Shown: positions 9,701-32,354, counted from the stretch's first letter. The stretch is 64,000 nt of DNA from an uncultured Pseudomonadota bacterium (GCA_963759165.1 CAVWXK010000001.1:666260-730259); one strand, 5' to 3'. Notes: a model not told the origin generated them from the letters alone. Translations and numbers: made by a program.

Positions 9701-9733
9701 TTATCGTCACCAACTCAAGAATTGCCGACGGAC

Positions 9734-13989: not shown

Positions 13990-14020
13990 GTTGAACCTCC
14001 TGTTGCAGGAAGAAGAGCGC

Positions 14021-14254
14021 TTACGCGCCCTCCCCCGTGGTTGCTGGTTGTGCCGGTTGACCTGCGGGCTTCGCCTTGGGCGGAAAAGCCGAGTAGCGCT
14101 TGCCGTTGATGATGACGTTGAAACCGTTGCCCTTGCTGTGGGCGAAGGCGGCGCCGACGCGTTTGTTTTCCTTCTTGCCGCCGCTCTCGACGGTGTCGAA
14201 GATGTAGAAGGCCGGTAACTGTTTCTCTTTGGTAGTTTCGGTTTGTGTTGTCAT
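14021..14254 (-). CDS. Hypothetical protein (77 aa)
   Basis: The ATG at 14254 is preceded by a perfect AAGGAG. The C-terminus is Pro/Ala-rich. Confidence 0.5.
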   Translation of the reverse strand: MTTQTETTKEKQLPAFYIFDTVESGGKKENKRVGAAFAHSKGNGFNVIINGKRYSAFPPKAKPAGQPAQPATTGEGA

Positions 14255-14577
14255 AGCTGTTTCTCCTTTTTCGTGTTTGAACAAATCCCCTTCGGGATGA
14301 GTCCCGTCGCTATGCGCCAGGGCGCGGCGTCAACAGGAAAATTGGGGGGAACCGCTCGCGGGGGAACCGATTCTTCCTGTTTACGCGGGAAGCACCCGCG
14401 CATGGCAGGGCTCAGACGATGCCCAAGGGGTTTGCAAATACGGCTTGAGGAGAAAGGCTGACAACACCGGAACAGCGACCATGAAACAGGCTGATGCGCT
14501 GAAGAACTCGACTTGTTGATCGACGGAAAGAAAGCGGATGTCGCCTGGCGGTGCGCCGCGCGGTAACTGTTTATCAA

Positions 14578-15900: not shown

Positions 15901-16439
15901 GCCGTCCGGCAGGACGGGAAGAGATAGAGGTGAGAACGTGCACGCCGCCGTGGAAGATACTTCAGATTAAGTTTCTGACCACGCGCTTCAGATGGTTCCG
16001 CCCCGCTCTTCGAATGGACAGTCACTTGGGGCGTCGCCTGAAACAGGCACATTGTGCTGGCGCTGACCCCGGAAAGAAGCGTGATCCCTGCCCAAGGCCA
16101 CCTCAGAAGGATATCTTGAGACAGGAAGGAAGAAGCTATGATCTGACCATCTGCAATCATTTAAGGCTTTCGCGCCGGCAATGGTGCGAAAGGCGTCCAG
16201 GCAGGACGCACGAAAAGGCATGAGACCGCTGGAACGACAGCAGGACGACTCCCGATCGTCACTGCGCTTTATAGATAGGTCCATTGCTCCTAACTGCAAA
16301 TTGCCGAGGACAGAAAGGCCAGCAAAAAACCTTGACTGGTACCGCATTAAAGAAGCGGCGTGCGCTGCCGGGGATCTGCCGGCCGTAGGTGCCGCAGCGT
16401 CGAGCTCGACGCTTGAGCGGCAGGCCGGCAAGTCCGGTG

Positions 16440-17798
16440 TCACTTCTTCGTTGGAGGTTTCGCGGGTGTGGCTCCTGCTGCGCCAGCGTTCACGCTGTCG
16501 GCTGTTTCGCCTGAGCCATCCGCGATAGGCTGCCATCCCGGTATGCCCTGCAGAATGCGCTCGGCATTCTTTGCAGGCGTGATGTGGCCGTAGTAGTCCT
16601 CGATCATCTTGACCGATGTTCCCATTTGTTTCGCAAGGAAGTACACGTCCACGCCTTCCATCAGCCGGAAGGTCGCGTAGGTGTGACGGAGGCAATAGCC
16701 GCTGCGGCGCGTGCCGGATACGCCATAGAGCAGGCCGGATTTCGTCAGCAGATCGGCGATGAGCGTGTCATAAAGACTTTTGGCTGTCTTTCCTTCGGCA
16801 GTCGTGAATACAGGGTCGTCGGATTTTGTCGCTTTTGACATTGCCTTGATGCGGTCGAGATAAGTGGCGACGTTGTTGGCTGCAATCAACTCCCGGTACT
16901 TGCCCTTGCCCCTGACGTTCAGGGTCACAAACGGGCGGCCATCGCGGGTCGTTCGCACGTCGATGTCGCGCCATCTGAGGCTCCGGGCCTCTCCCGTCCG
17001 CATACCGGTATTGGCCATGATGAGCATGAAGTTGTAGGCCATGGTCCTGTACCAGATATTGATTTCTCTGTCGCCTTTTCCTATCCAGTCGCGGGCGAAG
17101 GTATGCAGCTGGCGGTATTCCTGCGGCGTGAATTCATCACGCCGATTCTTGTCCTCGGGCATGCGGCCCTTCGGCACCTGGCTCTCTTTTATATAATGCT
17201 TGCCCGCGGCGAAGTTCATGATGGCCCGGAAGGTCATCATTTCCTGGCGGATCGTGCCGCTCTTTGCGGGCCCGTTCTTCTTCTTTTGTTCGGCGTCCTC
17301 CTTCGCATCCGGCAAAGCGCCGGGCTTCGGCTTCTTGCGGAAGACGCGCTTCTGCGGCTTTCTTAGTGCGTTATTCTCTTTGCGCCAGAAGGGGTATTCC
17401 GTCCATTTGTCCTCGGTGATGGAAGTTATCTGCATATTGCCCATGTAGGGGATGAGGTGCAGGCGGATATGTCCGTCCACGGTCTTCCAGCGATGCAGGG
17501 TGACCTGGCCGATATCCGCGACACGTTTCTGGAAACATGAGTATTCCTTTGCTACGTCAGCAAAGGACTTGTCGAACACCGGAACCTGATGCCGTACCCG
17601 GAATCGGATATCTGAATCGTGGTCAAAAGCCTTTTCTTTAGCTTCGTTGATATCGGATGTCTTCAGGGAGATCGTTTTATACTGGCTGGTGCTTGGCACC
17701 TTGACGCGGCAGTACCAATTCTTGTGCCGCACATCGGCCCTGCGGAAGATGATGAGGCCTTTCTTGAGTTCCTGAACGTCGGTGAGGAAATGTTCCAA
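16440..17798 (-). CDS. Tyrosine recombinase / integrase (Int1)
   Basis: ANTGMRTGEARSLRWRDI (catalytic Arg box) and CLRHTYATFRLMEGVDVYFLAKQMGTSVKMIEDYYGH (H-x-x-R ... Y). TTG start. Confidence 0.9.
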   Translation of the reverse strand: MEHFLTDVQELKKGLIIFRRADVRHKNWYCRVKVPSTSQYKTISLKTSDINEAKEKAFDHDSDIRFRVRHQVPVFDKSFADVAKEYSCFQKRVADIGQVTLHRWKTVDGHIRLHLIPYMGNMQITSITEDKWTEYPFWRKENNALRKPQKRVFRKKPKPGALPDAKEDAEQKKKNGPAKSGTIRQEMMTFRAIMNFAAGKHYIKESQVPKGRMPEDKNRRDEFTPQEYRQLHTFARDWIGKGDREINIWYRTMAYNFMLIMANTGMRTGEARSLRWRDIDVRTTRDGRPFVTLNVRGKGKYRELIAANNVATYLDRIKAMSKATKSDDPVFTTAEGKTAKSLYDTLIADLLTKSGLLYGVSGTRRSGYCLRHTYATFRLMEGVDVYFLAKQMGTSVKMIEDYYGHITPAKNAERILQGIPGWQPIADGSGETADSVNAGAAGATPAKPPTKK

Positions 17799-18220
17799 TG
17801 AGTGGCTTTCTGTGCATGTTCCGTGTATAAAGAATTTGTAACCCCTTGATTCTACGTATACTGTGAAGGGGTTGTATATAGGAATGATATCATGATTGTT
17901 GTTAAATATCAGTTAAATAGAACAACTCCGTCATCCCGGCAAGAGACGGGAGCTATCATACGTACTTGATCTAGCTATTACATTCATGGCCATTTCTGCC
18001 TGTGTAGGTGTTGTGTAGAGAATAAGCGATCATTTTACAGAATAACTCTTTGGTCTGATCCCGAATCGTAACCTACACTTTCTCTGTAACGCTGTACAGG
18101 TCGTCCGAAAAAGAGGTGGCTATTCTGCTGCCGCTCCCGATTCCATGCAGACCTCGGCAACTGCCTCGCGGCTGCCGTCCGGTGCGCTCGTGTCAACGGT
18201 CGGAGCAGAAGACCGAGCGC

Positions 18221-18588
18221 CTAAGAAGCATCGCAATCCTTGAGCGGCGGGCCGGCGTTGTGGGTAGCTTCTGCGATGGACACCTCGTCCGTTGCGTCAT
18301 GGTCAATTACGCCTTCAAGAAACTCGCGGTGCCTCTCCTGGAGGAACGCGAGCGCTTGCCCTTCGTCAGCTCGGTGTTCGAGTTTCTCTTTGACAAACTG
18401 CAAGCGGGCGTCGTTTTCATCGAGAACTTCACCCCACGTCTTGATGCCAATGGAGATGTTGGGGCCGCGATTGATGAGCCGCAGCAGCGGATAAATACTT
18501 CGTCGCCGTAGTGGTTGATGACCTTGATGGCGATCTTGCCGGACGCGGGCTTGTCGAAGGGGCGGCTTTCCTTTTTATACAGCGCAAT
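18221..18588 (-). pseudogene. 3' remnant of an unidentified gene (possibly a DNA methyltransferase tail), frameshifted
   Basis: An in-frame TAA bounds the 5' side. The remnant reads ...PFDKPASGKIAIKVINHYGDEV, shifts frame near 18495, then continues ...INRGPNISIGIKTWGEVLDENDARLQFVKEKLEH... No start codon or N-terminal part is present. Confidence 0.35.
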
Positions 18589-18765
18589 TTAGCATAGGTC
18601 GCGCAAGGCGCGATGAGAAAGAGCGAACAGCGTCGGAAGTCATCGCGTTCTGCGTTTGCAAAGCAAATGTTGTTGGTGTGAGTCTCCATCCGGACGGCCG
18701 GCCAGCGCCAGGCGTGCTCGGTAGTTCCACAAGAGAAAGGCGATAGAACGTTCAAGAACCGGACG

Positions 18766-20892
18766 ATGGCCACGAGAAAAAAAGCAGTATCGACCCCGAA
18801 GTACGTGATGAAAATATCGCGTCTCACGGTCGATAAACTCGGCGTAAAGCTATATGACCGCGTTTCCGCCGTGATCGCAGAACTCGTTGCCAACAGCTAC
18901 GACGCGGACGCGGCGAAGGTCACGATCACCGCGCCGATGGGCGAATATCTGGCAACGCGCTCCCAGGGCGAAATCAAGGACCGGGGATACGAGGTTGTGG
19001 TGGCCGACAACGGCAGCGGGATGACCCCCGATGAGGTCAACCGCTTCTACCTGCGGGTAGGCGCGGAGCGGCGGAAGGACGAACGCGGCGACACGTCGAA
19101 AGAATTCGGCCGAAGGGTCATGGGCAACAAAGGCGTCGGCAAACTCGCGCCGTTCGGAATCTGTCACGAGATCGAAGTGTTGACGGCGGGCGGAAGTCTT
19201 ACGACGGGCAAAGACGAATCCGGGAAGCAGGTTAAGGGGTACCTGAGAGCCCACCTAGTCCTCGACCGCGACGGGATTCTGAGGGACGAGGAATTCGACT
19301 ACGAGCCTAGAATAGGCTCGTTGGACGAAACCATAGCCAAATCCGCCGGAACGACGGTGACCCTGCGGATCTTCGCTTATCGCCGGGTCCCCACCATCGA
19401 GGATTTTTCGAGACAGTTGGCGCAGCGGTTCGGAGTGAAATCCGGCAACTGGAAAATCGAGCTGTTCGACGCCGTCAAGACCCCGAGCGATCCGAAATAC
19501 AAAACCGAAGTCGGCGTGTTCGCCATCAACACGATGGAGAATACCGAAATCTCGTTCAAGCCAGGCAAGAACGGCGAGATCGAAGGAAGAGCTTTCGACT
19601 CCGACGACCAGCCCATTGAAAACGTCAATGCCGGTTTCGCCTACGAAGGCAAGAATTATCCCGTCCGCGGCTGGGTCGCATACGCGAAGGAGCCTTACAA
19701 GGACGACCTCATGGCCGGCATTCGCATCTATTGCCGGGGAAAAATCGCCGCGCAGACCAACGTATTCAACCGAAAGGCCGGATTCACGGGAGAGCACGAT
19801 GTCCGTTCGTATCTCGTCGGGGAATTGCACGCCGATTGGTTGGACGAGAATGAAGACCTGATACAGACCGACCGTCGCGACATCCTCTGGTCGCACGAAC
19901 TCGGACAGGAGTTCGAGAACTGGGGCCAGGCGGTCGTCAGGAAAATCGGCACGCGCTCCCGCGACCCGATGAAGAAGAAGACATGGGAGCGCTTTAAGGA
20001 AATCGCGAATCTCGACGTTCGTGTTCGCGAGGCGTTTCCCCGCGCCGACCAAGAGACCCTGCGCGACCAAGCCGTGACGGTGGCAAAAATGATCGGCCAG
20101 ACAATCCGCGCCGACGAGGTCGAAGACACCGACCGAGTCGAGAGTTTCGTTCAACTGAGCCTCATGCTGGCGCCGGTGATCACTCTTGACGAGAAACTAC
20201 GCGCGGCGGCGGATTCGGCGGATTCGCCGCTGGAAGTCGTTACCGACATCCTGAAAACCGCGCGCATCGCCGAGCTAGCCTCCTTCGGTCGGATTGCGGA
20301 AGACCGCATTCGCGTTATCGAACGGGTTGAGGCCCTGAAGGACGACCCCAATACTTTGGAGTCCGCGTTCCAGACCCTGATCCAAACATCGCCGTGGCTC
20401 GTCAATCCGCAATGGTCGCCGATTACGGCCAATCAGGCTTTCTCGACGCTGCGCAAGGAGTTCGTCAAGTTTTATAAGGAGCAGACTGGCGAAACGCTCA
20501 ATCTCGATGATTTCAGCGACCCGAAGAAGCGCGCAGATTTTGTCATGACCAATCAGGACGCGGCCGTTCAGATCGTCGAGATCAAGAAGCCGCACCACAA
20601 AATCACCGACGCGGAATTGGATCGGATTGTAAAGTACCGCGACCTGATGGAAGAGTTCCTAAACATGAAGGGCCACGAGGCTTTTAAGAGGCTTTTCCCT
20701 GAGTTTGAAATCACCCTCGTCTGCGATGGCGTGAGTTTGGACGGCACGCGCCGCGCGGCATTCGAGGGAATGAAGAAAGCGGGGCAGCTCACGCATATCA
20801 CCTGGAAAGCGTTTCTGCTCAAGACCAGACAAATGCACAAGTCGTTTCTCGACGAGGCAGAAAGACTCAAAAAGGAAACCCGTGCGGACTAG
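18766..20892 (+). CDS. GHKL (HATPase_c_3/MORC-like) ATPase fused to a C-terminal PD-(D/E)xK, Shedu/DUF4263-like nuclease domain
   Basis: Bergerat motifs ELVANSYDA, DNGSGM and GNKGVGKL. The C-terminus reads SPWLVNPQW...RADFVMTNQDAAVQIVEIKKP (D...ExK). Confidence 0.8.
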   Translation: MATRKKAVSTPKYVMKISRLTVDKLGVKLYDRVSAVIAELVANSYDADAAKVTITAPMGEYLATRSQGEIKDRGYEVVVADNGSGMTPDEVNRFYLRVGAERRKDERGDTSKEFGRRVMGNKGVGKLAPFGICHEIEVLTAGGSLTTGKDESGKQVKGYLRAHLVLDRDGILRDEEFDYEPRIGSLDETIAKSAGTTVTLRIFAYRRVPTIEDFSRQLAQRFGVKSGNWKIELFDAVKTPSDPKYKTEVGVFAINTMENTEISFKPGKNGEIEGRAFDSDDQPIENVNAGFAYEGKNYPVRGWVAYAKEPYKDDLMAGIRIYCRGKIAAQTNVFNRKAGFTGEHDVRSYLVGELHADWLDENEDLIQTDRRDILWSHELGQEFENWGQAVVRKIGTRSRDPMKKKTWERFKEIANLDVRVREAFPRADQETLRDQAVTVAKMIGQTIRADEVEDTDRVESFVQLSLMLAPVITLDEKLRAAADSADSPLEVVTDILKTARIAELASFGRIAEDRIRVIERVEALKDDPNTLESAFQTLIQTSPWLVNPQWSPITANQAFSTLRKEFVKFYKEQTGETLNLDDFSDPKKRADFVMTNQDAAVQIVEIKKPHHKITDAELDRIVKYRDLMEEFLNMKGHEAFKRLFPEFEITLVCDGVSLDGTRRAAFEGMKKAGQLTHITWKAFLLKTRQMHKSFLDEAERLKKETRAD

Positions 20893-21970
20893 CGCTGAAT
20901 CGAAACCGCCGGTCGCGGTAGACCTTTTCTCCGGCGCGGGAGGGTTGACGCTGGGTCTCAAGCGCGCCGGATTTCGCGTCGCGGTGGCGGTCGAGATCGA
21001 GGACCACGCGTTCGCGACTTATAAGACCAACCACCCGGAAGTTCGCGCGATCAAGCAGGACATTCGCACCGTCAAGGGCCGCCACTTGCGTGCTATGGCT
21101 GGCGGAGAAGTCGATTTGCTAGCGGGATGTCCGCCGTGCCAAGGGTTTTCTAGCCTCACCAACACTTCCTCGAAGCGCGACCCGCGAAATGACCTCGTTC
21201 TAGAGATGGGGCGATTGGTGAAGGAAATACGACCCAGAGTGGTGATGATGGAAAACGTCCCTGGCCTGGCGGGGCGCGGAAAGCGGCTCTTCAACCGGTT
21301 TTTGAAAACCCTTGACGAATTAAACTACCGATACACTTGGGATGTCCTTCAAGTCGCCGACTATGGTGTTCCCCAAAATAGGCGGCGCCTCGTCCTCTTT
21401 GCGGGCCGGGGATTCGAGTTGGCCCTTCCGAAACCGACTCATCATCGAATGGGAGATAGGGGCCTTCCGTCATGGAAGACGCTCCGGGATGTGATCTCGA
21501 ACATGGAACCCCCGACGCTACTCGAGAAGTCGTCGAAGGCACGCGGTCCGCTACCACTTAGCTGGCATTATGTCAGGCGTCTCTCGCCGATGAACATTGC
21601 CAGATTGCGCAAGACTCGACCGGGCGCGAGTCGCTCCAAGCTTCCCAAATCGCTACGCCCCGACTGCCACAAAGCGGCGGACGAAGGTTACAGCAATGTC
21701 TACGGGCGCATGAGTTGGGATCAGTTGCCCGTTACGATTACCGCTGGCTGCACCACGTTGAGCAAGGGCCGGTTCGGACACCCGTCGGAACTGAGAACCA
21801 TCTCGGTCCGAGAGGCCGCCCGGATTCAAACGTTCCCGGACGACTATGTCTTCGACACTCCATACATGGAATACGCTTGCGAGATGGTCGGAAACGCCCT
21901 GCCATGCGATTTCGCGGAAACGCTAGCCGCTTCGGTCGCCCTGCAACTCCCCGCAAGAAAACAGCCCTAA
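20882..21970 (+). CDS. dcm: DNA (cytosine-5)-methyltransferase (Dcm1)
   Basis: Motifs VDLFSGAGGLTLG (I), GCPPCQGFS (IV), ENVPGL (VI), QNRRR (VIII) and GNALP (X). The GTG start overlaps the upstream stop by 11 nt. Confidence 0.9.
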   Translation: MRTSAESKPPVAVDLFSGAGGLTLGLKRAGFRVAVAVEIEDHAFATYKTNHPEVRAIKQDIRTVKGRHLRAMAGGEVDLLAGCPPCQGFSSLTNTSSKRDPRNDLVLEMGRLVKEIRPRVVMMENVPGLAGRGKRLFNRFLKTLDELNYRYTWDVLQVADYGVPQNRRRLVLFAGRGFELALPKPTHHRMGDRGLPSWKTLRDVISNMEPPTLLEKSSKARGPLPLSWHYVRRLSPMNIARLRKTRPGASRSKLPKSLRPDCHKAADEGYSNVYGRMSWDQLPVTITAGCTTLSKGRFGHPSELRTISVREAARIQTFPDDYVFDTPYMEYACEMVGNALPCDFAETLAASVALQLPARKQP

Positions 21971-22005
21971 GGTGTTCGCGCTATCTCAGCGCCGTCCGTG
22001 AAACC

Positions 22006-22491
22006 ATGGATACCGTCCGCAAGGAAGTTCGGTCCAAGATCATGGCTGCGGTGCGCTCTCGTGGAAACCGAACGACCGAAATCGTCCTCGGAGATTTGCT
22101 CTGGACGGCGGGTCTTCGGGGCTACCGAAAGCATTGGCCCATTCCGGGAAAGCCGGACTTCGCATGGCCGGGGCGCAAAATTGCCGTATTCGTGGACGGT
22201 TGCTTCTGGCACGGTTGTACCTGCAGGTCTCTGCCGTCATCGAACGTAAAGTTCTGGAAGAACAAGATCGAGACCAATCGCAGTCGAGACAGACGCGTGA
22301 CTCGCCTGCTGCGCAGCCAAGGTTGGAAAGTTGTTCGGATTTGGGAATGTCGCGTAAAGAGGACCTCTTCGCTACGACGAGTCGAGAAGCTCGTCGAATC
22401 GTCGCAGATTTCAGCGCGAGGGAACAATCGACGGCGGTCGGCGAAAAGCATTAGGTACGCTGCGAATATGATTTCAGATCTTCGGAGCTAA
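22006..22491 (+). CDS. vsr: Very-short-patch repair endonuclease (Vsr1)
   Basis: RSKIMAAVRSRGNRTTE...PGKPDFAWPGRKIAVFVDGCFWHG...KFWKNKIETNRSRD. The ATG at 22006 lies inside the longer ORF 21715..22491. Confidence 0.85.
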   Translation: MDTVRKEVRSKIMAAVRSRGNRTTEIVLGDLLWTAGLRGYRKHWPIPGKPDFAWPGRKIAVFVDGCFWHGCTCRSLPSSNVKFWKNKIETNRSRDRRVTRLLRSQGWKVVRIWECRVKRTSSLRRVEKLVESSQISARGNNRRRSAKSIRYAANMISDLRS

Positions 22492-23254
22492 TTTCGTCTG
22501 CAGGCACGAGCCGGTAATGGCGTTCCTCGACGACTTTCACTTGGTCGTCGTCGAGCGTCAATTCGAACATCGCGATTGAATCGTCCGGCATGAACTGCGC
22601 GGAGATCGACCGGCACGTCAGGTTCGGGAACTTCTCCTTACAGCAGCGCATATCCTGCTTAGTCTGCACCACGGAAAGCTGATCGTTGCCGCCCTTCGCC
22701 TGGACGGGAAAGACGTATTGCCGACCCTGCCGATCAACGCCGATATAGATTTCGTCGATCTCGATCTGACCTATGCCCTTGACCGTCGTGCGAAGATGGT
22801 TCTGGAGAGAGTAGGCGGCGATTCCGAGGAAAATATCGATCAAACGGTTGTAGCGAACCCTCGCGAGCAACGCCTGTTCGTCGGAAAGCGCGTAGGCGCC
22901 GATTATTTCAGGTGTGGCGTCAGGGATTTTGACCTTCACCAGCGCGGCGTTCGGGACAATGCGGTTGACGCGAACGAGCTTGAACGCATAGAGCGCACGG
23001 CCCGCACCTTCGACGATCCACTCCATGCCCTTCGGCTGGGTCGCCAGAACTTCTTCCGGCATAGGCGTTCGATAGCGGATAGAATATATGACATCGCCGA
23101 GATTCTTCGGCAGGACGATATCCAACTTTTCCGCCGACGACTCCAAATCCTTCCGCTCGAAAGCGACCTCGGTCGCCCCCTTCTTGTAGCGGTCGAAGAA
23201 AATCTTCTTCACCAGGGCTTTGTATCTGTTCTCGCTGATCTCAGGTTTAGTCAT
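22451..23254 (-). CDS. Putative type II restriction endonuclease partner of Dcm2 (assigned by position)
   Basis: Its ATG lies 8 nt inside the 3' end of dcm2. A possible nuclease core is IEIDEIYIGVD...FPVQAKGG. I could not recognise a family. Confidence 0.45.
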   Translation of the reverse strand: MTKPEISENRYKALVKKIFFDRYKKGATEVAFERKDLESSAEKLDIVLPKNLGDVIYSIRYRTPMPEEVLATQPKGMEWIVEGAGRALYAFKLVRVNRIVPNAALVKVKIPDATPEIIGAYALSDEQALLARVRYNRLIDIFLGIAAYSLQNHLRTTVKGIGQIEIDEIYIGVDRQGRQYVFPVQAKGGNDQLSVVQTKQDMRCCKEKFPNLTCRSISAQFMPDDSIAMFELTLDDDQVKVVEERHYRLVPADEISSEDLKSYSQRT

Positions 23255-24573
23255 AAGCCGTCTCGTCGAGCGGACCTATCCCGATATCCTCTTGCTTGCG
23301 CTTTCGCGCCCCGCTCTTGCGGTCCCGTTTTTTGATCGGAACGACGATGCCCCAATAGCGGGCCGCTTGTGACATATCCATTCGCAACAGCGCGGGAGCG
23401 CCCAACGCGACGGTCTCTTTCGGCCGTTCCGGCTCGACGCCCAGCGCCTCGACGAAGCGAGCGGCGATTGCACGAGCCATCGGCGGCGCAACAGCGTTTC
23501 CGATCTGCCGCGCACCGTGCCACTTCGTCTCGTGAAACCTGAACCAGTCGGGGAAACCGTGCAGGCGCGCCATTTCCCGAACCGTGATGCAGCGCGGTTT
23601 TGCGTAGTGGATGGGGCGTGGACTGGTGAAAGCCCCACGCGCCGAATCCGTCCCTGCGCGCAGCGTGTTCGAAACGCCATCACGGGGCAGCCGAAAAAAG
23701 CGAGAGATCGGCTCGACGCTTCCCGGCGCCGTCTTCGAGAAGCGCTGCTTGGAAATGTCCGTGTGATCGGTTCTCATGCTGCAAGTTAGCCGCTTGGGGT
23801 TCCATTTGCGCTTGTAGCCGAAGCCCCAAGCGTCCCGGTCGAGACAACGCATCTTCCGTGCGTAGGTGCTGGGCTCACCCCAATCGTTCGTCTCGACTTC
23901 GTCGCCGACGAGCAACTCGCGGAAATTTTCCGCGTCCGGCAGATCGTGCAGTGCGTCGTGGCACGAGGGGCTGGGAGGCAGGTTGCCGTTTACGCTGCCG
24001 GCAGCATGCGTTGTGGGGTCGGGATAAGAGGCGGGCCGCTTGCCCTTTTTAGCACCCAAGAGAATGAGGCGCTGGCGGTCTTGCGGCACTCCATAATTGG
24101 CCGCGTTCAGCACCCTCCACGGGAGCACCACCTTGTACCCGATATCATCGAAAGCCTCGATCACCTCTTCGAGAAATCGACGCTGCTTTCCGACTGTGAG
24201 CCCCTTCACATTCTCGAAGACGAAGTAGCTCGCTTCCAGCTCGGAGACGATGCGAACGAATTCCCTCACCAAAGCGTTGCGGGGATCGTCGATTGCCCTC
24301 TGACCCATGAGCGAAAATCCCTGACAGGGTGCGCCGCCGAACACGACATCGACACGACGGCGGCCGATTTTGGCCGCCTTTCGGATTGCGTCCCCCGTCA
24401 GCCCGACGACCGATTTCGGGATCGTCGCGCAATGGGGGAAGTTGAACTTGTGGACAGGCCGGATGAATAGGATCGATCTCCACTGCAGCAACTACATCGA
24501 AACCTGCTTGTTCGAAGCCCAGGCTCAAGCCTCCGGCTCCGGCGAAGAGGTCTATTCCGACTGGTCGCTTCAC
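23247..24573 (-). CDS. dcm: DNA (cytosine-5)-methyltransferase (Dcm2), frameshifted in this assembly near 24456
   Basis: Motif I (IDLFAGAGGLSLG...AAVEIDPIH) is in one frame. HKFNFP, GGAPCQGFS, ENVKGL, QDRQR and GNAVAPP are in the +1 frame. Removing one T (CAT CCG GCC t GTC CAC) restores a single ORF. Confidence 0.8.
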
Positions 24574-24983
24574 ATTTTGTCTTCTAGAAAATCTACGGCC
24601 CTGGCGATTGCGGCTTGGGTGTCCTTCAACTCGCATTGCCAGACGACCAAACTCCGCCATCCGACCTTTGCCAACTCTTTGAGCGTCTTTCTGTCGCGGG
24701 CCTTGTTGGCCGCGATCTTCGGCTTCCAATAATCGAGCTTGCTCTTGGGAAGCCTTCCCCATCGGCAAGCATGTCCGTGCCAGAAGCAGCCATGGACGAA
24801 GATCGCCTTGCGGCGCTTCGAGAAGGACAAATCGGGCGAACCCGGAAGCCGTCGGTCATGCAGCGTGTAGCGATAGCCCTTTGCGTGCAGCGCACGCCTG
24901 ACGACCATCTCCGGGCCTGTGTTCCGGCTTCCAACTTTCGCCATGATCGCGCTTCGGCGCTCGGGTGACACTCTGTCCGCCAT
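24570..24983 (-). CDS. vsr: Very-short-patch repair endonuclease (Vsr2)
   Basis: RRSAIMAKVGSRNTGPE...PGSPDLSFSKRRKAIFVHGCFWHGH...YWKPKIAANKARD. Its TGA overlaps the dcm2 GTG (ATGTGA). Confidence 0.85.
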   Translation of the reverse strand: MADRVSPERRSAIMAKVGSRNTGPEMVVRRALHAKGYRYTLHDRRLPGSPDLSFSKRRKAIFVHGCFWHGHACRWGRLPKSKLDYWKPKIAANKARDRKTLKELAKVGWRSLVVWQCELKDTQAAIARAVDFLEDKM

Positions 24984-25162
24984 GTTCCTGTCGCATCGCG
25001 TTCGTGTCCGTTTGAAGCCGCGCGCAAATTGTCGAACGAAAAAATTAGACGCTGACTTCGCGCATGCACCGCCCCTGGATACCTCCACCTGATGCTTCTA
25101 TAGCAGAATCAGAAGGTTCGCCGAAAAGGGGGGAGAGCACGGCTGTGGATAAGCTTCGAACG

Positions 25163-25205
25163 CAAAAAGGCGCGGCCTCTCGAAAAGAGGCCGCGCCGAT
25201 TTTTC
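25163..25205 (-). terminator. Hairpin terminator (T-runs on both sides) ending the ssb-ardC transcript
   Basis: GGCGCGGCCTCT-cgaaa-AGAGGCCGCGCC flanked by A5 and T5. Confidence 0.75.
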
Positions 25206-25218
25206 GGTTGCCGAGCAA

Positions 25219-25434
25219 CTACCGCGACGCGCGCGTGTTGCCGCAATCCTGACAAATACGGTCCGCAGCGAAATTGTGTTTGCCACCGCCAACGAAGCAA
25301 GGCTTGTGCTGCAACTCGACGCGGTGCGGCCATTCGGAAGCTCCGCATTTGCAACGCCCGTTTTGCTGTACAGTATGGCCGATGAAATCGTTGTAACCGT
25401 TCTCTTGCAGCATCTCGCGTTGTTCGTTGTTCAT
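25219..25434 (-). CDS. Small Cys-rich (zinc-finger-like) protein, 71 aa
   Basis: ATG preceded by GGGGAGA. Cys pattern is ...RCKCGASEWPH...KPCFVGG...RICQDCGN. Confidence 0.5.
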   Translation of the reverse strand: MNNEQREMLQENGYNDFIGHTVQQNGRCKCGASEWPHRVELQHKPCFVGGGKHNFAADRICQDCGNTRASR

Positions 25435-25542
25435 CGAAGTCTCCCCTGAATGTTGCATAAATCGTATGTTTGAGGGAGGGCCGCGCCCTCCCTGTTTTTC
25501 GAGTCCTAGAACAGAAGGAATTCGTTGCTTGGTACTCGCGGC

Positions 25543-26457
25543 TCATGCAGCCGCTTCCTGGCTGACGGTTTCGCCGCGGCCGTGGATGAAATCGGCGGCG
25601 CGCTGTGCGTGCGCGGCGGCGGTGAAAACGGCGTGGCTGTCGTTGGCCAGCACTTCAAGCCAGTTTGCGATATAGGCGGCGTGGTCTTCGCGGGCTTCAA
25701 GCGCGAGTCCGAGATCGGCGCAGAGGAAAGCCGCTCCGAGTTCGGCCACGAGTTCTTCCATCGCATAGCCCTGAGAACCGTAGCGTTTGCTGCCGAAGTC
25801 GCGGGCAAGGCGTGATTTGTTGCCGGTCCAGTGCGTCAATTCATGGGCGAGAGTCGCGTAGTAGCTGTCGGCGTCGCGGAAGCTTTCGAAGGGCGGAAGC
25901 TGGACGGCGTCGGTTGCGTGGCTGTAGAAGGCGCGGTTCCCGCCGTGGTTGACGGTCGCGCCGGCGGCGGCGAAAAACTTCTCGGCGCGTTCGACACGGG
26001 CGACGGGATCAAGCTGCGGTTCGGTCTTCGCGTAGAAGTGCGCGGGCAGGCCTTCGATCTGCTCGACGTTGAAAACCGTGTAGCCCTTGAGAAAGGGAAT
26101 TTCGCGCTCGGTCTCGTCGCCGGTGGCCTCGTCGGTTTCGGTGCGCGTGATCGTGTTGGCGTAGACCACAAGCGAGCCTTTCTCGCCCTTGCGGACATGC
26201 GCGCCAAGTTCGACGGCTTGCCGGAACGTCATCCAGATTGGCGCGGCGAAGTTCTGCGCCAGTGCGGAGGTCCACAGGGAAAGCACGTTGATACCGGCGT
26301 AGGGCTGGCCATTGTGGCGCAGGGGCCGCGTGATGCGTCCGGCGGCCTGGTCCGCGTTCCACGGCTTCACCCAAGGCCTGACGCCCTTTGCGAGGGAAGC
26401 CATAATCTGTGCGGTGATCCGGCTGTAAATGTCCTGTCGTTCGTCGTTCTGTTTCAT
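25543..26457 (-). CDS. ardC: ArdC-like antirestriction protein (ssDNA-binding N-domain + zincin metalloprotease)
   Basis: MKQNDERQDIYSRITAQIMASLAKGVRPWVKPW... and the HELTHWTG metal-binding motif. Confidence 0.85.
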   Translation of the reverse strand: MKQNDERQDIYSRITAQIMASLAKGVRPWVKPWNADQAAGRITRPLRHNGQPYAGINVLSLWTSALAQNFAAPIWMTFRQAVELGAHVRKGEKGSLVVYANTITRTETDEATGDETEREIPFLKGYTVFNVEQIEGLPAHFYAKTEPQLDPVARVERAEKFFAAAGATVNHGGNRAFYSHATDAVQLPPFESFRDADSYYATLAHELTHWTGNKSRLARDFGSKRYGSQGYAMEELVAELGAAFLCADLGLALEAREDHAAYIANWLEVLANDSHAVFTAAAHAQRAADFIHGRGETVSQEAAA

Positions 26458-26649
26458 TGTCGAGTCCTCCTTTTTGCGTTTGGTTTTTTCTCAAGACCGG
26501 GCCTGAAAAACCGGCCGGAAATGCCGCCGGGTCACCGCAGGGAAACGGCCACACGGTCTCTTGGTGCGGGCCTGCCGTTGACGCGGCGGCACGGACGGTT
26601 TAGGCATCGGAACATCTTGAGAAAACCCGGCAAAAGGTTGTGAGAGACA

Positions 26650-27021
26650 TCAGAAGGGCAAGGGCGCCTCGGCAGATTTAGCAGCGGCGGGGCGGCGATC
26701 GAGAAACCGGATTTGGCGCGCAATGATTTCGGTGCGGTAGCGTTTGCCGCTGCCGTCCTTCGCCTCGTACGCGCGGGTGGTCAGCCGTCCTTCGACGTAG
26801 ACCCTGCGGCCTTTGCTGAGATACTGCCCGCAGGTTTCCGCCAGCCGTCCGAAAGCGACTATCCGGTGCCATTCGGTGCGCTGCTGCGGGTCGCCGTTGC
26901 GGTCCGTGAAACGCTCGTTGGTCGCCAGCGACAGGTTGGCCACGTTCTGCCCTGACGGCAGAGCATGAACCTGCGGGTCAGCGCCCAGATTGCCGATTAC
27001 GATTGCCTTGTTGATTGCCAT
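26650..27021 (-). CDS. ssb: Single-stranded DNA-binding protein
   Basis: MAINKAIVIGNLGADPQ...TEWHRIVAFGRLAE...VYVEGRLTTR OB-fold signature with a C-terminal ...PLPF tip. RBS is GGAGGA. Confidence 0.9.
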   Translation of the reverse strand: MAINKAIVIGNLGADPQVHALPSGQNVANLSLATNERFTDRNGDPQQRTEWHRIVAFGRLAETCGQYLSKGRRVYVEGRLTTRAYEAKDGSGKRYRTEIIARQIRFLDRRPAAAKSAEAPLPF

Positions 27022-27697
27022 TGTTCTGTCCTCCGCTCTTTGTTGCGCCCGCTTCCCGTTCATCGGGCAGGGCGTGCCGCCTTGCTTTCATCACCGCGCA
27101 ACTTTTTTCCGCGCGGCCCTCTCACAAAAACTGGAGGGCCGTGCGCAGATTCCTGGATGTGCGAGCGGAGCGGGCGGCAGGCCGTGCCAGAGCGCAGCGG
27201 CCCGAAGGGATGGCGCGGCGTGCTAGCGCAGCGAACGCCACCAAATAGGGGTTAGGGCTTCGACTTAAAGGGAAAGGCTGACGGGCGAGTTTGGAGGTTC
27301 AGCAGGGCAATTGCGGAGGCAACTCGCAACCGGTCCTGAGGCCGGACGCGCATCGAACCGCCAAAATGTCGTTTTTATGGTGACAAATTATGGGCCAAAA
27401 GTGTTGAGGAATGGTTAAGCCATTGAACGAATGGCCCTATTGGCCCATTTTTGGCGAAGACCAAAGGCACGCAGTTATGCACGCGGCTACAACTTGGGCC
27501 CCCCTGGAAAGCCCTTGGACTCAACTCCGGGCTCGAACGTCGCGTTTGCAAACCACGTGGTCTTGGTGCGAGCCTGAACCGGAAGTCAAGATGGTAATCC
27601 CGAGAACATCGTCATGTGCGGAACCGCAGTTGCACCCGAAACCTCACGGGCGCGTCTCAACGTCCGTCCGCTCGCCGCACGACTAAAGGACGATAAA

Positions 27698-29524
27698 ATG
27701 GTTTCAAAGTCTGAATGTCTCGACGCAGTAAAGAGTCTGCGAGCTAACCAGGCCGTGGAGGCCTCTGATGAGAACATCATCGCGGCTATTCACTTAAACA
27801 ACACTCATGGTCTTGGTATTGACGCAGCGCTCGACCAGAGTTCGCGTAGTGGGAATGATCACGGTGTGGATGCTTGGTATTACGATGACACCAAGAAGAC
27901 GCTGATCGTTTATCAAAGTAAACTCAGTGAGAGCAAAGCCGCGGCCTTGGCTGGATTGGCCGACCTCAATAGGGCGCGTGCGTGGCTGGAGGAAGTGATA
28001 ATCGCTGGAACAGTAGCAACCATCCCAAATGACAATCACTGCTTATTTAATCTCTACACGAAACTTTCGGAAGTACGGAACACTCTTCAACGTGTCGAGT
28101 TTGAATTGGTATCCTGTTTCAGCAAGAACGACTTGGAAGATGCGCCAGAATACAGCGAGTTCGAAAGTGGCCTCGCCAAATCTAAACTGAATGCGTTCGT
28201 TAAGGGCCAGTTAAGCGGTTCATTGGCAGTAGACCTTGCAGAGTACAACCTCTTACCTACCGTCTGCATACCTAAGACGTATCCGTTAATCAGACTTCCG
28301 CATTCCCGAATCGATTTGAGGCACAACGCCCATCTGGATTTAGCGTACATTCCGCTGCACAGCCTCGTCGAACTTTACCGAGTCAGAGGTAATGTACTAT
28401 TCGATAAGAACGTGCGGCTTTCGTTGTTAGAAAAAAAGGATGCGAGCGAGCGATTGATTCATCCGATAGAAGATACCCTGAAGAGAATCACCTCTGGCAC
28501 TCTAAGTCCGAACATTTTCCCCTTTTACCACATTGGCGTAACCATTGCAGCCAGGGTTTCCACCGCCCAAAACAAGGATATGCTGACTTTAGAGGCTCCT
28601 AGTATTATCAATGGCTGTCAGACAATCACCATCGCCTATGCGTACTTCAAGGAGCTTGAAAAGGCAAACAGGCCAGAGGCAATTGAGCGCTTCAAGCAGA
28701 TCAAGGTGATTGCCAAAATTGTCGTGGGCACAACCAGCGAAGAGCTCAAGGAGATTACCAATGCCAATAATCGGCAGTACCCTATCGAAGATTGGCAGCT
28801 ATTTTCAAATGAACCAATACACATTGAGATCGAACAAACACTGAAGGATATCGGGGTGTTCTATGAGCGACAGGAAGGCAAGTTCGATGCTGTGATGAAG
28901 AGTGCGGACAGCGCGAAGTATTACATCAACACCAACGGTACTTACATTAAGGTTGTCGATCTCGGCCAAGTAATTGCGTTGGCGCGGAGGGATCTGCGCT
29001 GGGCGGCGAAGCCTTCGGAGATTTTCTGGAACAAACAAAATCACGACAGAGTATTCGACAAAGCCATCCCAAGGTGCCCGAGAGATATCGTCTTCTGCTT
29101 GAACCTCCAGAAGGCGATCAGACGCGGCTTGAACGTGTACTTGGAACAACCCACTCTCGCCAACAGTAGTGCCCCCAAAATCTTTCAGAAGCCGTTAGTT
29201 AGAGCCTACTTATCACGTACCGCTCTGCTATACTTTTACCAGAATCCGAAGAATGAATGGATTCGCAAGGACTTTTCTAAGAAATTATCGAAGAAAGCTA
29301 GCCCGACGCTTGTGGAGGAGATGCAGACGTTTTACCTGAAGGTCATAAGCAAAACCAAGAATTGGTACACGGGCGAATCGCAAGGATTGAAGGTTGAGGT
29401 CTCTAAGAAGAATATGGACTCGTTCTTCGGCGGATTAGAGATTGAATTGGGGGTAGTCGGGACTGAGGGTTCAATTCCATTTTCGGGCACAAGCATTGAC
29501 TGGACGAAACATGACGAGGATTGA
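27698..29524 (+). CDS. AIPR-family (abortive infection phage resistance) protein
   Basis: 608 aa from the ATG at 27698 (RBS AAAGGA). It has the ...IINGCQTITIAY... motif typical of AIPR and is visibly more AT-rich than its flanks. Confidence 0.65.
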   Translation: MVSKSECLDAVKSLRANQAVEASDENIIAAIHLNNTHGLGIDAALDQSSRSGNDHGVDAWYYDDTKKTLIVYQSKLSESKAAALAGLADLNRARAWLEEVIIAGTVATIPNDNHCLFNLYTKLSEVRNTLQRVEFELVSCFSKNDLEDAPEYSEFESGLAKSKLNAFVKGQLSGSLAVDLAEYNLLPTVCIPKTYPLIRLPHSRIDLRHNAHLDLAYIPLHSLVELYRVRGNVLFDKNVRLSLLEKKDASERLIHPIEDTLKRITSGTLSPNIFPFYHIGVTIAARVSTAQNKDMLTLEAPSIINGCQTITIAYAYFKELEKANRPEAIERFKQIKVIAKIVVGTTSEELKEITNANNRQYPIEDWQLFSNEPIHIEIEQTLKDIGVFYERQEGKFDAVMKSADSAKYYINTNGTYIKVVDLGQVIALARRDLRWAAKPSEIFWNKQNHDRVFDKAIPRCPRDIVFCLNLQKAIRRGLNVYLEQPTLANSSAPKIFQKPLVRAYLSRTALLYFYQNPKNEWIRKDFSKKLSKKASPTLVEEMQTFYLKVISKTKNWYTGESQGLKVEVSKKNMDSFFGGLEIELGVVGTEGSIPFSGTSIDWTKHDED

Positions 29525-29573
29525 TCTCGCGAGGCCTCTCGGGGAGGAGCGTGCTAATGGCCTGAGGAGTCGG

Positions 29574-29924
29574 TCAGTCTTCGCCCTTGAATTGAATACT
29601 GATGTTGCGAATTTCGTTCTGAAAATTATCGTGGAGGCGTTGAATGATGCTGCTGAGGAAGAAAACTTCCTTGCCCCCTTTTTTGACGGCCCGTATTACC
29701 GCGCGGGTAGCCCCGTGCTTTGTTGGTTCCCATTCAAGCTGACACCCGGCAGCGTTCCTGTCGCCTGTCGGGTGAATTATATTTTTCCCTTTGGTTTGGA
29801 GGTTTCGAATCTCGCGCGGCGGTTGTTTTGACTTCGGAAGCTTCTTGAAGTTCTGCGTTAAGCGATCAAGAAATTCTTGTCGCAGATCGAAATCGCCGCG
29901 CGTAGATATCTGGAGCCAGATCAT
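29574..29924 (-). CDS. Hypothetical protein (116 aa)
   Basis: Lys-rich ORF in the AT-richer segment. A competing + strand ORF (29496..29831) looks less protein-like. No motif recognised. Confidence 0.35.
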   Translation of the reverse strand: MIWLQISTRGDFDLRQEFLDRLTQNFKKLPKSKQPPREIRNLQTKGKNIIHPTGDRNAAGCQLEWEPTKHGATRAVIRAVKKGGKEVFFLSSIIQRLHDNFQNEIRNISIQFKGED

Positions 29925-30233
29925 CTTTTTATCTTGCCTCGGTTACTCGCCCATTTGCGGTTACGGACCGCCGATGCAATGGGCAAAAAACATAGCGGCT
30001 GACGCTCACAAGTGCAAACGTGGGAACGCCTCAATTCTGCTAGTCGGGCGCCTCGATGACGTTGACCGCCTCCTTCAATCCTGTTTTTAGCGCTGCGACA
30101 TATTGGGCCGCGTTCCCGGCTGTGCCGCCCGTAACATGTGTTCACATGTCAGATTGGAGGATGGTGCCATCCTCGGTGCCGGGGCGGGAGCATGGTGTCC
30201 CGCTTTCTCCCGGCTCAAGGAACAGGGAAAGAA

Positions 30234-30564
30234 TGGTGCGGGAGGAGGGACTTGAACCCTCATGAGCGTGGGCTCGGTGGATTTTCTTACCACTACGGCT
30301 TTCGCCGTCCTCGCTGGAAGCGTCAGGTGGCGCTCCGTTGAGGTTTGGGGTCTGGACTATCCCTTCACCGTACCTCGAACATGGTTCGAGGGTTAGGTGC
30401 TGCCCGTCTAGTCTCTACACCTTCCCGGAGGGTCGCTCCGGGCTTGGCTCGGGATTGCCATTTGACAGGTTTCCCCGAATTTGAGCAGTTCTGCATCGTC
30501 GGTTTCCCGGCGAGCACTCAAGTTTGGTCTGAGTCCACTGCGTCTGCCGTTCCGCCACTCCCGC
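30234..30564 (-). tRNA. tRNA-Leu (anticodon CAA) interrupted by a group I intron
   Basis: Exon 1 is 30564-30531 and exon 2 is 30285-30234. Joined, they give an 86-nt class II tRNA with acceptor GCGGGAG/CTCCCGC, anticodon arm GTGGA-CTCAAAA-TCCAC, variable arm GAGC-CCAC-GCTC, T arm GAGGG-TTCAAGT-CCCTC, and CCA. Confidence 0.85.
30286..30530 (-). ncRNA. Group I (IC3-like) self-splicing intron, 245 nt
   Basis: Contains TCAAATTCGGGGAAACC, GGCAATCCCGAGCCAAGCC and GAAGGTGTAGAGACTAGACGGGCAGCACCTAA. From memory these are nearly identical to core strings of the Azoarcus tRNA-Ile and Anabaena tRNA-Leu introns. It ends in G before AAAATCC. Confidence 0.85.
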
Positions 30565-30614: not shown

Positions 30615-31916
30615 TCAGGTTGGCGGTGATTTTTCGCGCGGCTTTTTTGGCTTGGGCCGCATGATGTTGATGGCGGCGGCGTCAAGCTGCGTCTTGATAT
30701 GGGCGGCGTAGTACTTCTCGATCATCTCGACGCTGGTGCGGCAGTTTTTGGCAATCTGGTAGATGTCGGCGCCTTCCATCAGGCGCAGACATATATATGT
30801 GTGCCGGAGGCTGTAGGCCGTTCGGGGCCGGCCCTCGCGGTCGAACCTGAGATTCTCTTCATCGAGGATGGTCTTGAAAAGCTCGCGCTGCCATTTCGGA
30901 AAAATCAGGTCTGTGGGTTCCGGCAGGCGTAATTCTGCGGAGCCGTTCGCAGCGGCGTTTGCGCCGTTGTTCTGATTGGCGGCGTTGCCGGCGCGCGCGG
31001 GGCGCGGTCTGGCCTTCAGTCTTTCAAAGGGGCGCACGGCGCCGCTCATGCTCTTGCAGTAACCGACACCGCGTTTTCCGCGGACCTCGATTTCAAGGAT
31101 GGTTTGACGGCTCGCCTCGTCTTCGACGATCGTCACGTCGCGGAATTGCAGCCGCCATGCTTCATCGGGCCGCAGGCCCGTGTTGGCTGCGAACAGGACG
31201 TAATCATGAAGCTGCTCCGATTCCCATTTGTAGCGCGCATTCTTCGGCTCATGTGCGCGCTTCCGTGTGGCTTCGTAGAGCTTTTTGTATTCCTCGGGCG
31301 AGAACCAGGCGCGGTGCGAGATTTTTGGCGACGCCCGGTAGGGTTCGGAGAGGTCAGGCAGCCGGTCGAGCCATCCGTTGCGGACGGCGGCTTTCAACGT
31401 CTGCCGCAGGGTGACGATTTCCTGATGGGTGGTGTTGCGGGCCGGTGGCTTGCCGCGCTTCTTCATCGCTTCTTCAAGGCGATGGATGCGGTACTCCTGA
31501 ACCTTGCCGGCAGTGATTTCCGAAAGGCCCAAGGGGCCGAAGAATGGCACAAGGTGCACCCGCGACCGCCAGTGCTGGCCGTTCACGTAAACCTTGCTGC
31601 GTTGGCCCTGCGTGATGAGGTCGTATTCGCGCAGGAACTGTTCCGAGGCTTCGGCGAAGGTCTTCTCCGTTTTGATTTCGCCGTTGCGGAGCTTGCCGCG
31701 AAGCTGGAGATACCAGTCTTCCGCGATCTCCTTGGCGCGAGAGAGGCTTTCTTCCTTGGTGGTGGTGCGGCGGTTTTTGCCGCCGAGGTAGGTGGCGCAT
31801 TGCCAGCGGGGACTGTTCGGCCGTTTGTAAACGTGAACCTTGCCGCCCAGGATTGTGTGGTGTTCGCTCACTGAAAAATGCCGTCCGAACACCCCGAAAC
31901 GTAGCAGAATGTGCAA
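30615..31916 (-). CDS. Tyrosine recombinase / integrase (Int2)
   Basis: ANTGLRPDEAWRLQFRDV and SLRHTYICLRLMEGADIYQIAKNCRTSVEMIEKYY. TTG start at 31916, or GTG at 31871. Confidence 0.9.
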   Translation of the reverse strand: MHILLRFGVFGRHFSVSEHHTILGGKVHVYKRPNSPRWQCATYLGGKNRRTTTKEESLSRAKEIAEDWYLQLRGKLRNGEIKTEKTFAEASEQFLREYDLITQGQRSKVYVNGQHWRSRVHLVPFFGPLGLSEITAGKVQEYRIHRLEEAMKKRGKPPARNTTHQEIVTLRQTLKAAVRNGWLDRLPDLSEPYRASPKISHRAWFSPEEYKKLYEATRKRAHEPKNARYKWESEQLHDYVLFAANTGLRPDEAWRLQFRDVTIVEDEASRQTILEIEVRGKRGVGYCKSMSGAVRPFERLKARPRPARAGNAANQNNGANAAANGSAELRLPEPTDLIFPKWQRELFKTILDEENLRFDREGRPRTAYSLRHTYICLRLMEGADIYQIAKNCRTSVEMIEKYYAAHIKTQLDAAAINIMRPKPKKPREKSPPT

Positions 31917-31961: not shown

Positions 31962-32354
31962 TTATTCTAGGGGATTATTTCTGATTTTGAATTTTGATTT
32001 TAGGATTTTGAGTCCGGTGGCACGTGCGATCTTTTGCAGCGCCATCGGGTCGCGTCCCATCCCCGGCAGGTCGCAGTTGATGAGCGTGTGGCCGCCGGCG
32101 ATCTTGTACTGATCGGCCTCGCGAATCGTCTGGTCGAGGTCGTCCTGAACGAGGTTATCCTTGAAGAGCATCGCATTGCGCCGCACCATCCCCAGGTTCC
32201 GCAGGTTGAGCTTCTGTTCGCTCAAGCCGCGGAGCACGCCCGAATCCGGCGGATGGAACCAGCACATGACGTCGATCGTCAGGTGCACGTGGGACATGGT
32301 CTCGCCAAGCTGATTGGCGTCGATCGGTCCGAGGACAGTGTTGACGGTAGCCAT
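31962..32354 (-). pseudogene. Phosphotriesterase-family (PTER/Php-like amidohydrolase) gene, 3'-truncated
   Basis: The N-terminus MATVNTVLGPIDANQLGETMSHVHL (HxH metal motif) continues to ...QKIARATGL. It then runs into AT-rich foreign sequence (KILKSKFKIRNNPLE*). About 115 of an expected ~300 aa remain. Confidence 0.65.

Follow-up and report, generated by a model that had tools for sequence, protein, structure and literature searches.

A stretch of 64,000 nucleotides from an uncultured Pseudomonadota bacterium (we call this whole stretch the window) holds, at 30564-30234 on its minus strand, a gene for tRNA-Leu(CAA) that a group I intron cuts in two between C34 and A35, and the open reading frame (ORF) of a tyrosine integrase stops 50 nt before that tRNA. 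In what follows, we have tried to focus on two questions within this small region: what is an intron-split tRNA doing beside an integrase, and how can a self-splicing RNA manage with the base pair that this one has at its splice site? Much of the anatomy had been read correctly in the original prediction, a short note made from the DNA before any search. Its minus-strand reading of the gene matches the sequence exactly, the three intron core strings that it quoted are all found in the insert, and its 86-nt class II tRNA-Leu(CAA), split between positions 34 and 35 by an intron that ends in G, is what ARAGORN in intron mode returns for the joined exons (tRNA-Leu(caa), i(35,245), that is, an intron at position 35 with a length of 245). 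The integrase that it placed 50 bp away is indeed a tyrosine integrase (phrog_1, E 2e-29), and its comparison of the insert with the IC3-type group I introns of Azoarcus and Anabaena is borne out by a match to the Rfam model Intron_gpI (RF00028) and by covariation throughout P1-P9.0.

The Rfam match itself, on which the original prediction had staked its case, was found at a score lower than Rfam would like. In a permissive scan, it covers the full model (30541-30333; 45.8 bits, E 2.4e-10) and falls just below the gathering score of 50 bits. Because eight clear relatives of the intron score 33-52 bits with the same model, the sub-threshold score is a property of the clade and no sign of decay. 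It does, however, have a practical cost: default ARAGORN and an Rfam scan at gathering thresholds both missed the gene and the intron at 30234-30564. Standard tRNA finders and the Rfam threshold, which passes over most of the clade, leave an annotation gap, and genomes that carry such genes will appear to be without a tRNA-Leu(UAA) or a tRNA-Leu(CAA).

How well is the ribozyme preserved, and among what relatives does it stand? A scan of a genome collection with the core pattern GAGCCAAG...GGTGTAGAGACTAGACGG gave at least 120 loci (L001-L120), and it is to the 120 matches listed that all of our counts of genome relatives refer. They come from Alphaproteobacteria, Acidobacteriota, Burkholderiales, and further groups, and ARAGORN assigns 71 of them to tRNA-Leu(UAA), 8 to tRNA-Met/Ile(CAU), 8 to tRNA-Arg(CCU), and fewer to each of the other host tRNAs; the sole locus called “Leu(caa)” (L103) is a mis-called 73-nt Met-like gene. 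Introns in Leu(UAA) genes had been described in the original prediction as classically cyanobacterial or plastid; with 71 Leu(UAA) hosts in this list, they are not confined to those lineages. With exons and intron taken together, the window gene and the Leu(UAA) genes of Binatia and Acidobacteriaceae assemblies are 80-82% identical; the window gene has the wobble base C34 instead of U34, and in both its acceptor stem (6:67) and its anticodon stem (28:42), a double change has preserved the pairing.

Aligned with 70 UAA-type genes from that list (alignment A1, 71 sequences), the window gene takes part in a structure whose 63 pairs, from P1 to P9.0 with the P3/P7 pseudoknot included, are 95.0% paired, versus 28-43% in slid controls; 37 of the pairs change on both sides, and 0 of 500 shuffles match the observed values. 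On the window sequence itself, we could define P2 with its GAAA loop, P4-P6, P8, and P9.0, as well as the helices listed in Table 1. P7, the helix that binds guanosine, is invariant or covarying both here and in the CAA-only set described below, and in the window copy, every invariant column of the catalytic core is intact. Of the features by which one recognizes a group I intron of subgroup IC3, the helices P3-P8, the pseudoknot, a P1 paired with the 5' exon, and the terminal omega G are all present, and a score above gathering and the U·G wobble at the splice site are not. Rfam also offers a weak match to LOOT RNA (RF03000) at window 30276-30399, with 26.2 bits where 46.4 would be needed for gathering, which overlaps P8 and the GAAA hairpin of P9.

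The U·G wobble at the 5' splice site of group I introns is regarded as essential, and its replacement here by C-G, where the pair is otherwise near universal, is something that the original prediction overlooked. U stands at -1, and G at the end of the intron, in all 71 Leu(UAA) genes; the splice-site pair is U·G in 70 of the 70 UAA-type genes of A1 and C-G in the window alone, where the partner of C34 (30531) in the guide sequence is G46 (30519). Is the window gene, then, a solitary oddity? A scan of metagenomes with a C34-specific pattern yielded 88 loci, 71 of which were called as tRNA-Leu(CAA) with an intron after C34, and these represent 53 distinct sequences, the closest being 94.6% identical to the window gene. 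Their introns are 170-333 nt long, they have several anticodon-stem types and a variable P2, and the terminal omega G is found in all 71 as it is in the window. In an alignment of 49 CAA-type sequences (A2), the pair C34-G46 is present in every one, the intron structure is 96.0% paired (24-41% in controls) with 26 pairs double-changed, including a switch from A-U to G-C within P7, and pairing in the cloverleaf reaches 97.8%, where 17 of the 24 pairs are double-changed. Because the pairing of both intron and cloverleaf has been kept through compensatory changes, the CAA/C-G form appears to be a maintained lineage, and its pattern of conservation looks unlike the evolution of a pseudogene. A neighbor-joining tree with the wobble column masked, crude as it is, divides the CAA genes into about six groups that lie among UAA types; three of these groups are large (23, 10, and 16 members).

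Apart from its second and third bases (window 30529-30528), no position of the intron tracks C34. In what is a biased sample, the second base is G, which forms a G·U pair, in 80% of CAA types and 13% of UAA types; CAA introns mostly start with AGA (the G·U pair and, after it, a mismatched position of the P1 extension), and UAA introns mostly start with AAG or AAA. Within the limits of that biased sampling, one might imagine that the second-base G may offset the stiffer C-G pair by loosening P1. Whatever the adjustment, conservation on this scale would mean that the ribozyme evidently tolerates C-G at its 5' splice site, and a diverse clade with a Watson-Crick pair at that place amounts to a natural experiment on the U·G requirement.

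We turn to the neighbor. The integrase has more than 7,000 homologs, of which the best is 91% identical and the best named one (from Ca. Binatus sp.) is 90% identical; the best 120 of these >7,000 are at least 80% identical. The named sources include Ca. Binatus sp., Binataceae, Terriglobia, and Acidobacteriia. In many loci, the homologs lie directly upstream of an intron-bearing tRNA-Leu and in the same orientation, and the modules made of the integrase gene (int) and the intron-bearing tRNA are related at 67-86% nucleotide identity before giving way to unrelated flanks. The window's own similarity to its CAA relatives runs from 32015 to ~30157 (30157-30160) and then ends. The suggestion in the original prediction of a mobile island has thus held up, in that the module recurs with unrelated flanks and one relative has both ends defined.

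What went unremarked there is that the integrase's attachment core and the sequence that the intron interrupts are one and the same anticodon stem-loop. As far as the junctions let us judge, the core is the 12-13 bp GGACTYAAAATC(C) of the tRNA-Leu anticodon stem-loop; its exact copy GGACTCAAAATCC occurs once in the window, at the left junction, and equals the anticodon stem-loop of the spliced tRNA-Leu(CAA). In all 16 of the CAA loci examined, an exact GGACTCAAAATC lies upstream of int. Before it comes the 5' half of an intronless host tRNA-Leu(CAA) of a different sequence type (e.g., GCCGAGGTGGCGAAACGGCAGACGCAGA followed by GGACTCAAAATC), complete in 14 of the 16, truncated in L196, and visible only at its end in L179, where the locus stops; after it, instead of the tRNA 3' half, comes AT-rich element DNA and then int. 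Loci of the UAA type have the same arrangement with the core GGACTTAAAATC. In 43 of 43 loci, the core and the element's tRNA have the same wobble base (C with C in 22, T with T in 21, discordant in 0). The two exons of the element tRNA pair 7/7 in the acceptor stem in each of 27 loci, whereas the host remnant and the 3' exon pair in 4.8 of 7 positions on average, and the intron-bearing tRNA is a self-contained gene. This comparison also disposed of a mini-element that we had considered, in which int, the 5' exon, and the intron alone would be mobile and the 3' exon would be the host's; the homology that continues for 77 nt past the tRNA and junctions found elsewhere (those of L221, described next) exclude it as well.

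The complete element in L221 is the clearest case. It is 8,653 bp long, lies between 12-bp direct repeats of GGACTTAAAATC, and carries int, an intron-bearing tRNA-Leu(UAA), and genes for ArdC-N, PIN, and AbiEii/AbiEi proteins. Its right junction (attR) has a tRNA 3' half without a 5' half, and when the outer flanks are joined, they give a perfect 87-nt intronless tRNA-Leu(UAA). The intron of the element's own tRNA splits the 12-bp repeat 6+6, between GGACTT and AAAATC. Six contexts were reached by way of the integrase only, with the intron playing no part in the choice, and six of six have the host 5' half and core upstream and a matching intron-bearing tRNA-Leu downstream. Two further relatives are worth a mention. 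In L210 (11254-11630; Ca. Binatus sp.; the integrase is 90% identical), the intron stops after the 5' strand of P3 and runs into a gene for ribosomal protein S15, which is either an assembly chimera or a rearrangement. A scan of viral contigs gave one relative, L209, with an integrase 57% identical and the 3' half of a tRNA-Lys upstream of int, in the canonical style.

In the window, what the junction cuts is a protein gene. The N-terminal third of a gene of the phosphotriesterase (PTE) family ends there (Pfam PTE profile 1-82 of 298), and the listed ORF (31962-32354) continues into element DNA: where PTE homologs continue ...ARATGLNIVASTGWY, the window reads ...ARATGLKILKSKF and stops. From the conserved PTE codons for TGLNI, one would expect GGACTCAAYATH, a sequence that comes close to that of the core. 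Because the PTE gene is cut at the junction and the TGLNI codons resemble the core, the window element appears to sit at a secondary site inside this gene, and its tRNA is presumably an extra copy here. Secondary integration sites have been described for phages whose tRNA is defective (PMC10865867).

We consider it likely that the intron-split tRNA-Leu(CAA) is the spare tRNA of an integrative element, one that destroys the tRNA-Leu of its host and replaces it. The integrase would recombine at the core in the anticodon stem-loop, with the strands exchanged within the anticodon loop, and integration would split the host's intronless tRNA-Leu without rebuilding it and would so inactivate it. Because the host gene is split and not rebuilt, the element would have to supply a tRNA-Leu of its own, with the same anticodon, and such a gene lies 50-130 nt downstream of int. 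That tRNA would be functional only after its intron had spliced itself out, and the spliced product would then complement the host's loss. The CAA elements would derive from the commoner UAA type by retargeting at a single base (by the neighbor-joining estimate, ~6 such U-to-C events): a U-to-C change in the core would select for the same change in the spare tRNA, and with the wobble changed in both, the C-G pair would be forced on the 5' splice site. The element is probably mobilizable.

A number of points weigh against this scheme. Upstream of the window core, there is no host tRNA 5' half, and because it is absent, a role in complementation cannot be argued for this particular genome. Neither a right-end core, nor a tRNA-Leu 3' half, nor the C-terminal remainder of the PTE gene was found in the window, and because these are absent from it, the right end of the element is either beyond position 1 or lost. 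Both junctions are in hand for L221 only; most loci were gathered with patterns based on the intron, and the sampling based on the integrase amounts to 6 contexts, with all 6 integrases at least 80% identical to the window's. The window copy of the intron has its own deviations, namely a C·A mismatch in P2 (common to L122), a shortened and weaker P1 extension, and a C·U in P9.0. Experience with model ribozymes, in which C-G at the splice site weakens catalysis, is not encouraging either: in Tetrahymena, it makes the undocking of P1 ~80-fold faster (PMC1891724), and among the mutants of the Azoarcus CAU, CAC is tolerated best and yet is inferior to CAU itself (PMC2241849). C at -1 is, in these ribozymes, harmful and not lethal (PMC1891724, PMC2241849). 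Finally, that the intron splices, that the spare tRNA makes up for the one lost by the host, and that the integrase is active are conclusions drawn, for every member of the family, from sequence.

The closest parallel is the tRNA-dependent lysogeny of actinobacteriophages (Guerrero-Bustamante and Hatfull 2024, PMC10865867). There, as here, a tyrosine integrase acts at a short core in a host tRNA (8-10 bp in the phages, 12 bp here), the host tRNA is rebuilt at neither junction, and the element brings a tRNA that is identical in isotype; in phage Gaia, one even finds a tRNA-Leu-CAA downstream of int, and secondary sites inside protein genes, as in the window, are found among these phages (PMC10865867). 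Unlike them, the carriers that we describe hold ArdC, SSB, a relaxase, a coupling protein, toxin-antitoxin, AbiE, PIN, restriction-modification, and defense genes; no virion genes were seen in the window or in the contexts of the related elements, which sets the carriers apart from temperate phages. Unlike the phages, too, they have a spare tRNA that a group I intron interrupts precisely inside the core, and their hosts appear to be Binatota, Acidobacteriota, and Proteobacteria. With canonical tRNA-targeting islands and integrative and conjugative elements (Islander, PMC4383910), they share the tyrosine integrase, the tRNA target, and a crossover in the anticodon loop, which is a known sublocation class; canonical islands, however, carry a tRNA 3' segment and restore the gene (PMC4383910), and elements of the window's family do not.

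As for the intron, it resembles those of bacterial and plastid tRNA-Leu(UAA) genes in its subgroup architecture, its insertion at 34/35 of a class II tRNA-Leu, its lack of an endonuclease ORF, and the way in which the anticodon stem holds the exons together. It differs from them in the anticodon CAA, in C-G instead of U·G, and in being carried on an integrative element beside an integrase. The introns of Azoarcus tRNA-Ile(CAU) and alphaproteobacterial tRNA-Arg(CCU) (Reinhold-Hurek and Shub 1992; BbgpI, PMC7717549) are likewise small IC3 ribozymes with common core strings, but they have other host tRNAs, are inserted after 36/37, and all have U at -1. What sets the window gene apart from the IC3 tRNA introns is the splice-site pair and the host anticodon; what sets the element apart from tRNA-dependent lysogeny is the non-phage carrier and the intron-split spare tRNA. 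In the literature, of which our coverage was incomplete, we found no connection drawn between group I introns on the one hand and attachment sites or tRNA-dependent lysogeny on the other, and this is weak evidence of novelty.

Why should a spare tRNA have an intron at all? One idea, to which we would give slightly less than an even chance, is that the integration module has in the intron one of its working parts: with its core divided 6+6, the spare gene could not be a second attachment site. An intact core in the spare tRNA would allow int to be deleted or the gene to be targeted again by related elements, and the intron would prevent this; self-splicing would then restore the tRNA at the level of RNA, and the element could carry the exact anticodon stem-loop that it attacks. 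The alternative, to which we would give about the same chance, is that the intron is a neutral passenger, captured along with an old intron-bearing tRNA-Leu(UAA), and that only the tRNA matters. Intron-bearing tRNA-Leu(UAA) genes are widespread, after all, most of the 71 listed genome loci have no integrase within reach, and the phages of tRNA-dependent lysogeny manage with intronless spare tRNAs (PMC10865867); each of these facts favors the passenger and tells against the working part. On the other side are the exact placement of the intron in the middle of the 12-bp repeat, its presence in six of six elements sampled through their integrase, and the consideration that a copy without an intron, 1.5 kb away from the core of the element itself and directly oriented, would lay int open to deletion. 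To these may be added a case from another integrase family and another tRNA. At L119:2585-6650, a complete intron-bearing tRNA-Thr(GGU) comes first, then a 684-aa ORF, and then an integrase ORF (5171-6394, minus) of a different family (Pfam Phage_integrase, E 1.4e-18). Beyond that integrase, 3.7 kb from the intron-bearing gene, are the contiguous anticodon-stem-loop core and the 3' half of a tRNA-Thr(GGU) that is intronless and lacks its 5' half. Here as well, that is, an intron-bearing tRNA goes with a split host gene.

Three other explanations were weighed. If the change of U34 to C had destroyed the U·G pair and with it splicing, the gene would be a decaying pseudogene, the relic of an island. 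The window is the sole C-G case among the 71 genome-derived homologs in the matches listed, has extra mismatches in P2, P1, and P9.0, and sits at a secondary site, where there would be no pressure for a working tRNA; nevertheless, we judge this very unlikely in the face of 53 distinct C34 genes in at least three large clades, with 96% of the pairs kept in the intron and 98% in the cloverleaf (many through double changes), with C34 always accompanied by a C-type core, and with the invariant catalytic-core columns all intact in the window itself. It is hardly credible, to our minds, that the gene is an ordinary chromosomal tRNA-Leu serving as the attachment site of a canonical, gene-restoring island. 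The integrase lies 5' of the tRNA, the tRNA 3' end is not repeated in the window, a contiguous core with a host 5' half stands upstream of int, the exons of the element fit each other and not the host remnant, and the junctions of L221 contradict the idea outright. Its attractions are the accessory genes 3' of the tRNA and the situation in L179, where the last ~14 nt of the tRNA and its trailer recur 5.7 kb downstream (a second island may be nested there, at the tRNA 3' end). Nor can we give much credence to a lone move of the intron, by reverse splicing or homing, from a tRNA-Leu(UAA) into a native tRNA-Leu(CAA), which would account for the same insertion position in both isoacceptors and is, on the whole, extremely improbable: the exons too are 80-82% identical to UAA-type genes, the native tRNA-Leu(CAA) halves at the junctions are of a different sequence type, and 245 nt is too short for a homing endonuclease ORF.

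How tRNA introns that lack a homing endonuclease came to be scattered so sporadically across the bacteria has been an open question since the 1990s. An integrase that would cut the host tRNA-Leu at the very sequence that the intron interrupts suggests how such introns spread between bacteria, and an intron riding in the spare tRNA of an integrase-driven element is at least a concrete and testable answer. If the intron is a working part of the integration module, the spread of endonuclease-free tRNA group I introns from phylum to phylum would be the work of integrase-driven elements, not of homing or reverse splicing, and an element that decayed would leave its intron-bearing tRNA as the host's only functional copy. 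Integration that destroys a tRNA would also extend beyond phages, to a very large non-phage family in soil and peat bacteria.

Table 1. Features of the window, with positions counted from its first nucleotide.
Feature	Position	Strand	Remarks
PTE-family gene, N-terminal third	32016..32354	-	cut at junction
Attachment core	32003..32015	-	left junction
Promoter-like site TTCAAA-16-TAGAAT	31964..31991	-	putative, from consensus scan; in AT-rich stretch between core and int
Tyrosine integrase	30615..31916	-	Pfam Phage_int_SAM_5 weak; start codon uncertain
tRNA-Leu(CAA) 5' exon	30531..30564	-	34 nt; last base C34 at 30531
IC3 group I intron	30286..30530	-	245 nt; terminal G at 30286
P1	30534-30529/30521-30516	-	helix defined on window sequence
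P3	30488-30483/30405-30400	-	pseudoknot partner of P7
P7	30413-30409/30359-30355	-	pseudoknot partner of P3
P9 GAAA hairpin	30308-30295	-	helix defined on window sequence
tRNA-Leu(CAA) 3' exon	30234..30285	-	52 nt, encoded CCA included
Hairpin-rich trailer after tRNA	30157..30233	-	77 nt, conserved across elements; end of int-tRNA module
Accessory region 3' of tRNA	1554..30156		Pfam; perhaps only in part of this element
AIPR	27614-29524		accessory region
SSB	26650-27063		accessory region
ArdC-like anti-restriction/metallopeptidase gene	25543..26457	-	Pfam ArdcN + MPTase-PolyVal
Two C5 methylases			accessory region
Second tyrosine integrase	16440-17798		26% identical to first; same YxLRH motif
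IS110 transposase	14806-15843		adjoins second integrase, mid accessory region
Coupling protein	9734-12574		accessory region
Relaxase	7185-8672		accessory region

The surroundings of the module are uneven. On one side are housekeeping genes (lactate-utilization-like genes, queG, and cysS), and on the other, 3' of the tRNA, is the accessory region of Table 1, in which the second integrase and the IS110 transposase suggest a composite of more than one element. The ArdC-like gene has 79-82% nucleotide identity to counterparts in L138, L145, and L208, where they lie ~1 kb after the tRNA. At the far end of the region (window 1477-2658), a tRNA-Arg(UCU) faces it, and a CapR/DUF4379 zinc-finger gene starts 17 nt after that tRNA; within the window, we found no repeat of the 3' end of tRNA-Arg(UCU) or of tRNA-Leu(CAA) and no partial copy of the int-tRNA module. 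Between 2969 and 6574, on the minus strand, is a 1,201-aa ORF with internal 125-nt and Gly-rich repeats and with no match in Pfam or NCBIfam.

Among the genome relatives, the Arg and Met intron loci that were examined have no remnant cores and no integrases alongside. In L019 (reverse, ~2975-3200), the 5' half of a tRNA-Thr(GGU), with a contiguous core, lies 164 nt upstream of an intron-bearing tRNA-Thr; the half is identical to the 5' exon of that gene, and no integrase stands between the two. In a Burkholderiales-type locus (L116:1050-1590), an intron-bearing tRNA-Leu(UAA) has at a distance of 165 nt, on the other strand, a remnant that consists of the core and a 3' half from an intronless tRNA-Leu(UAA), an arrangement unlike that of the window's family.

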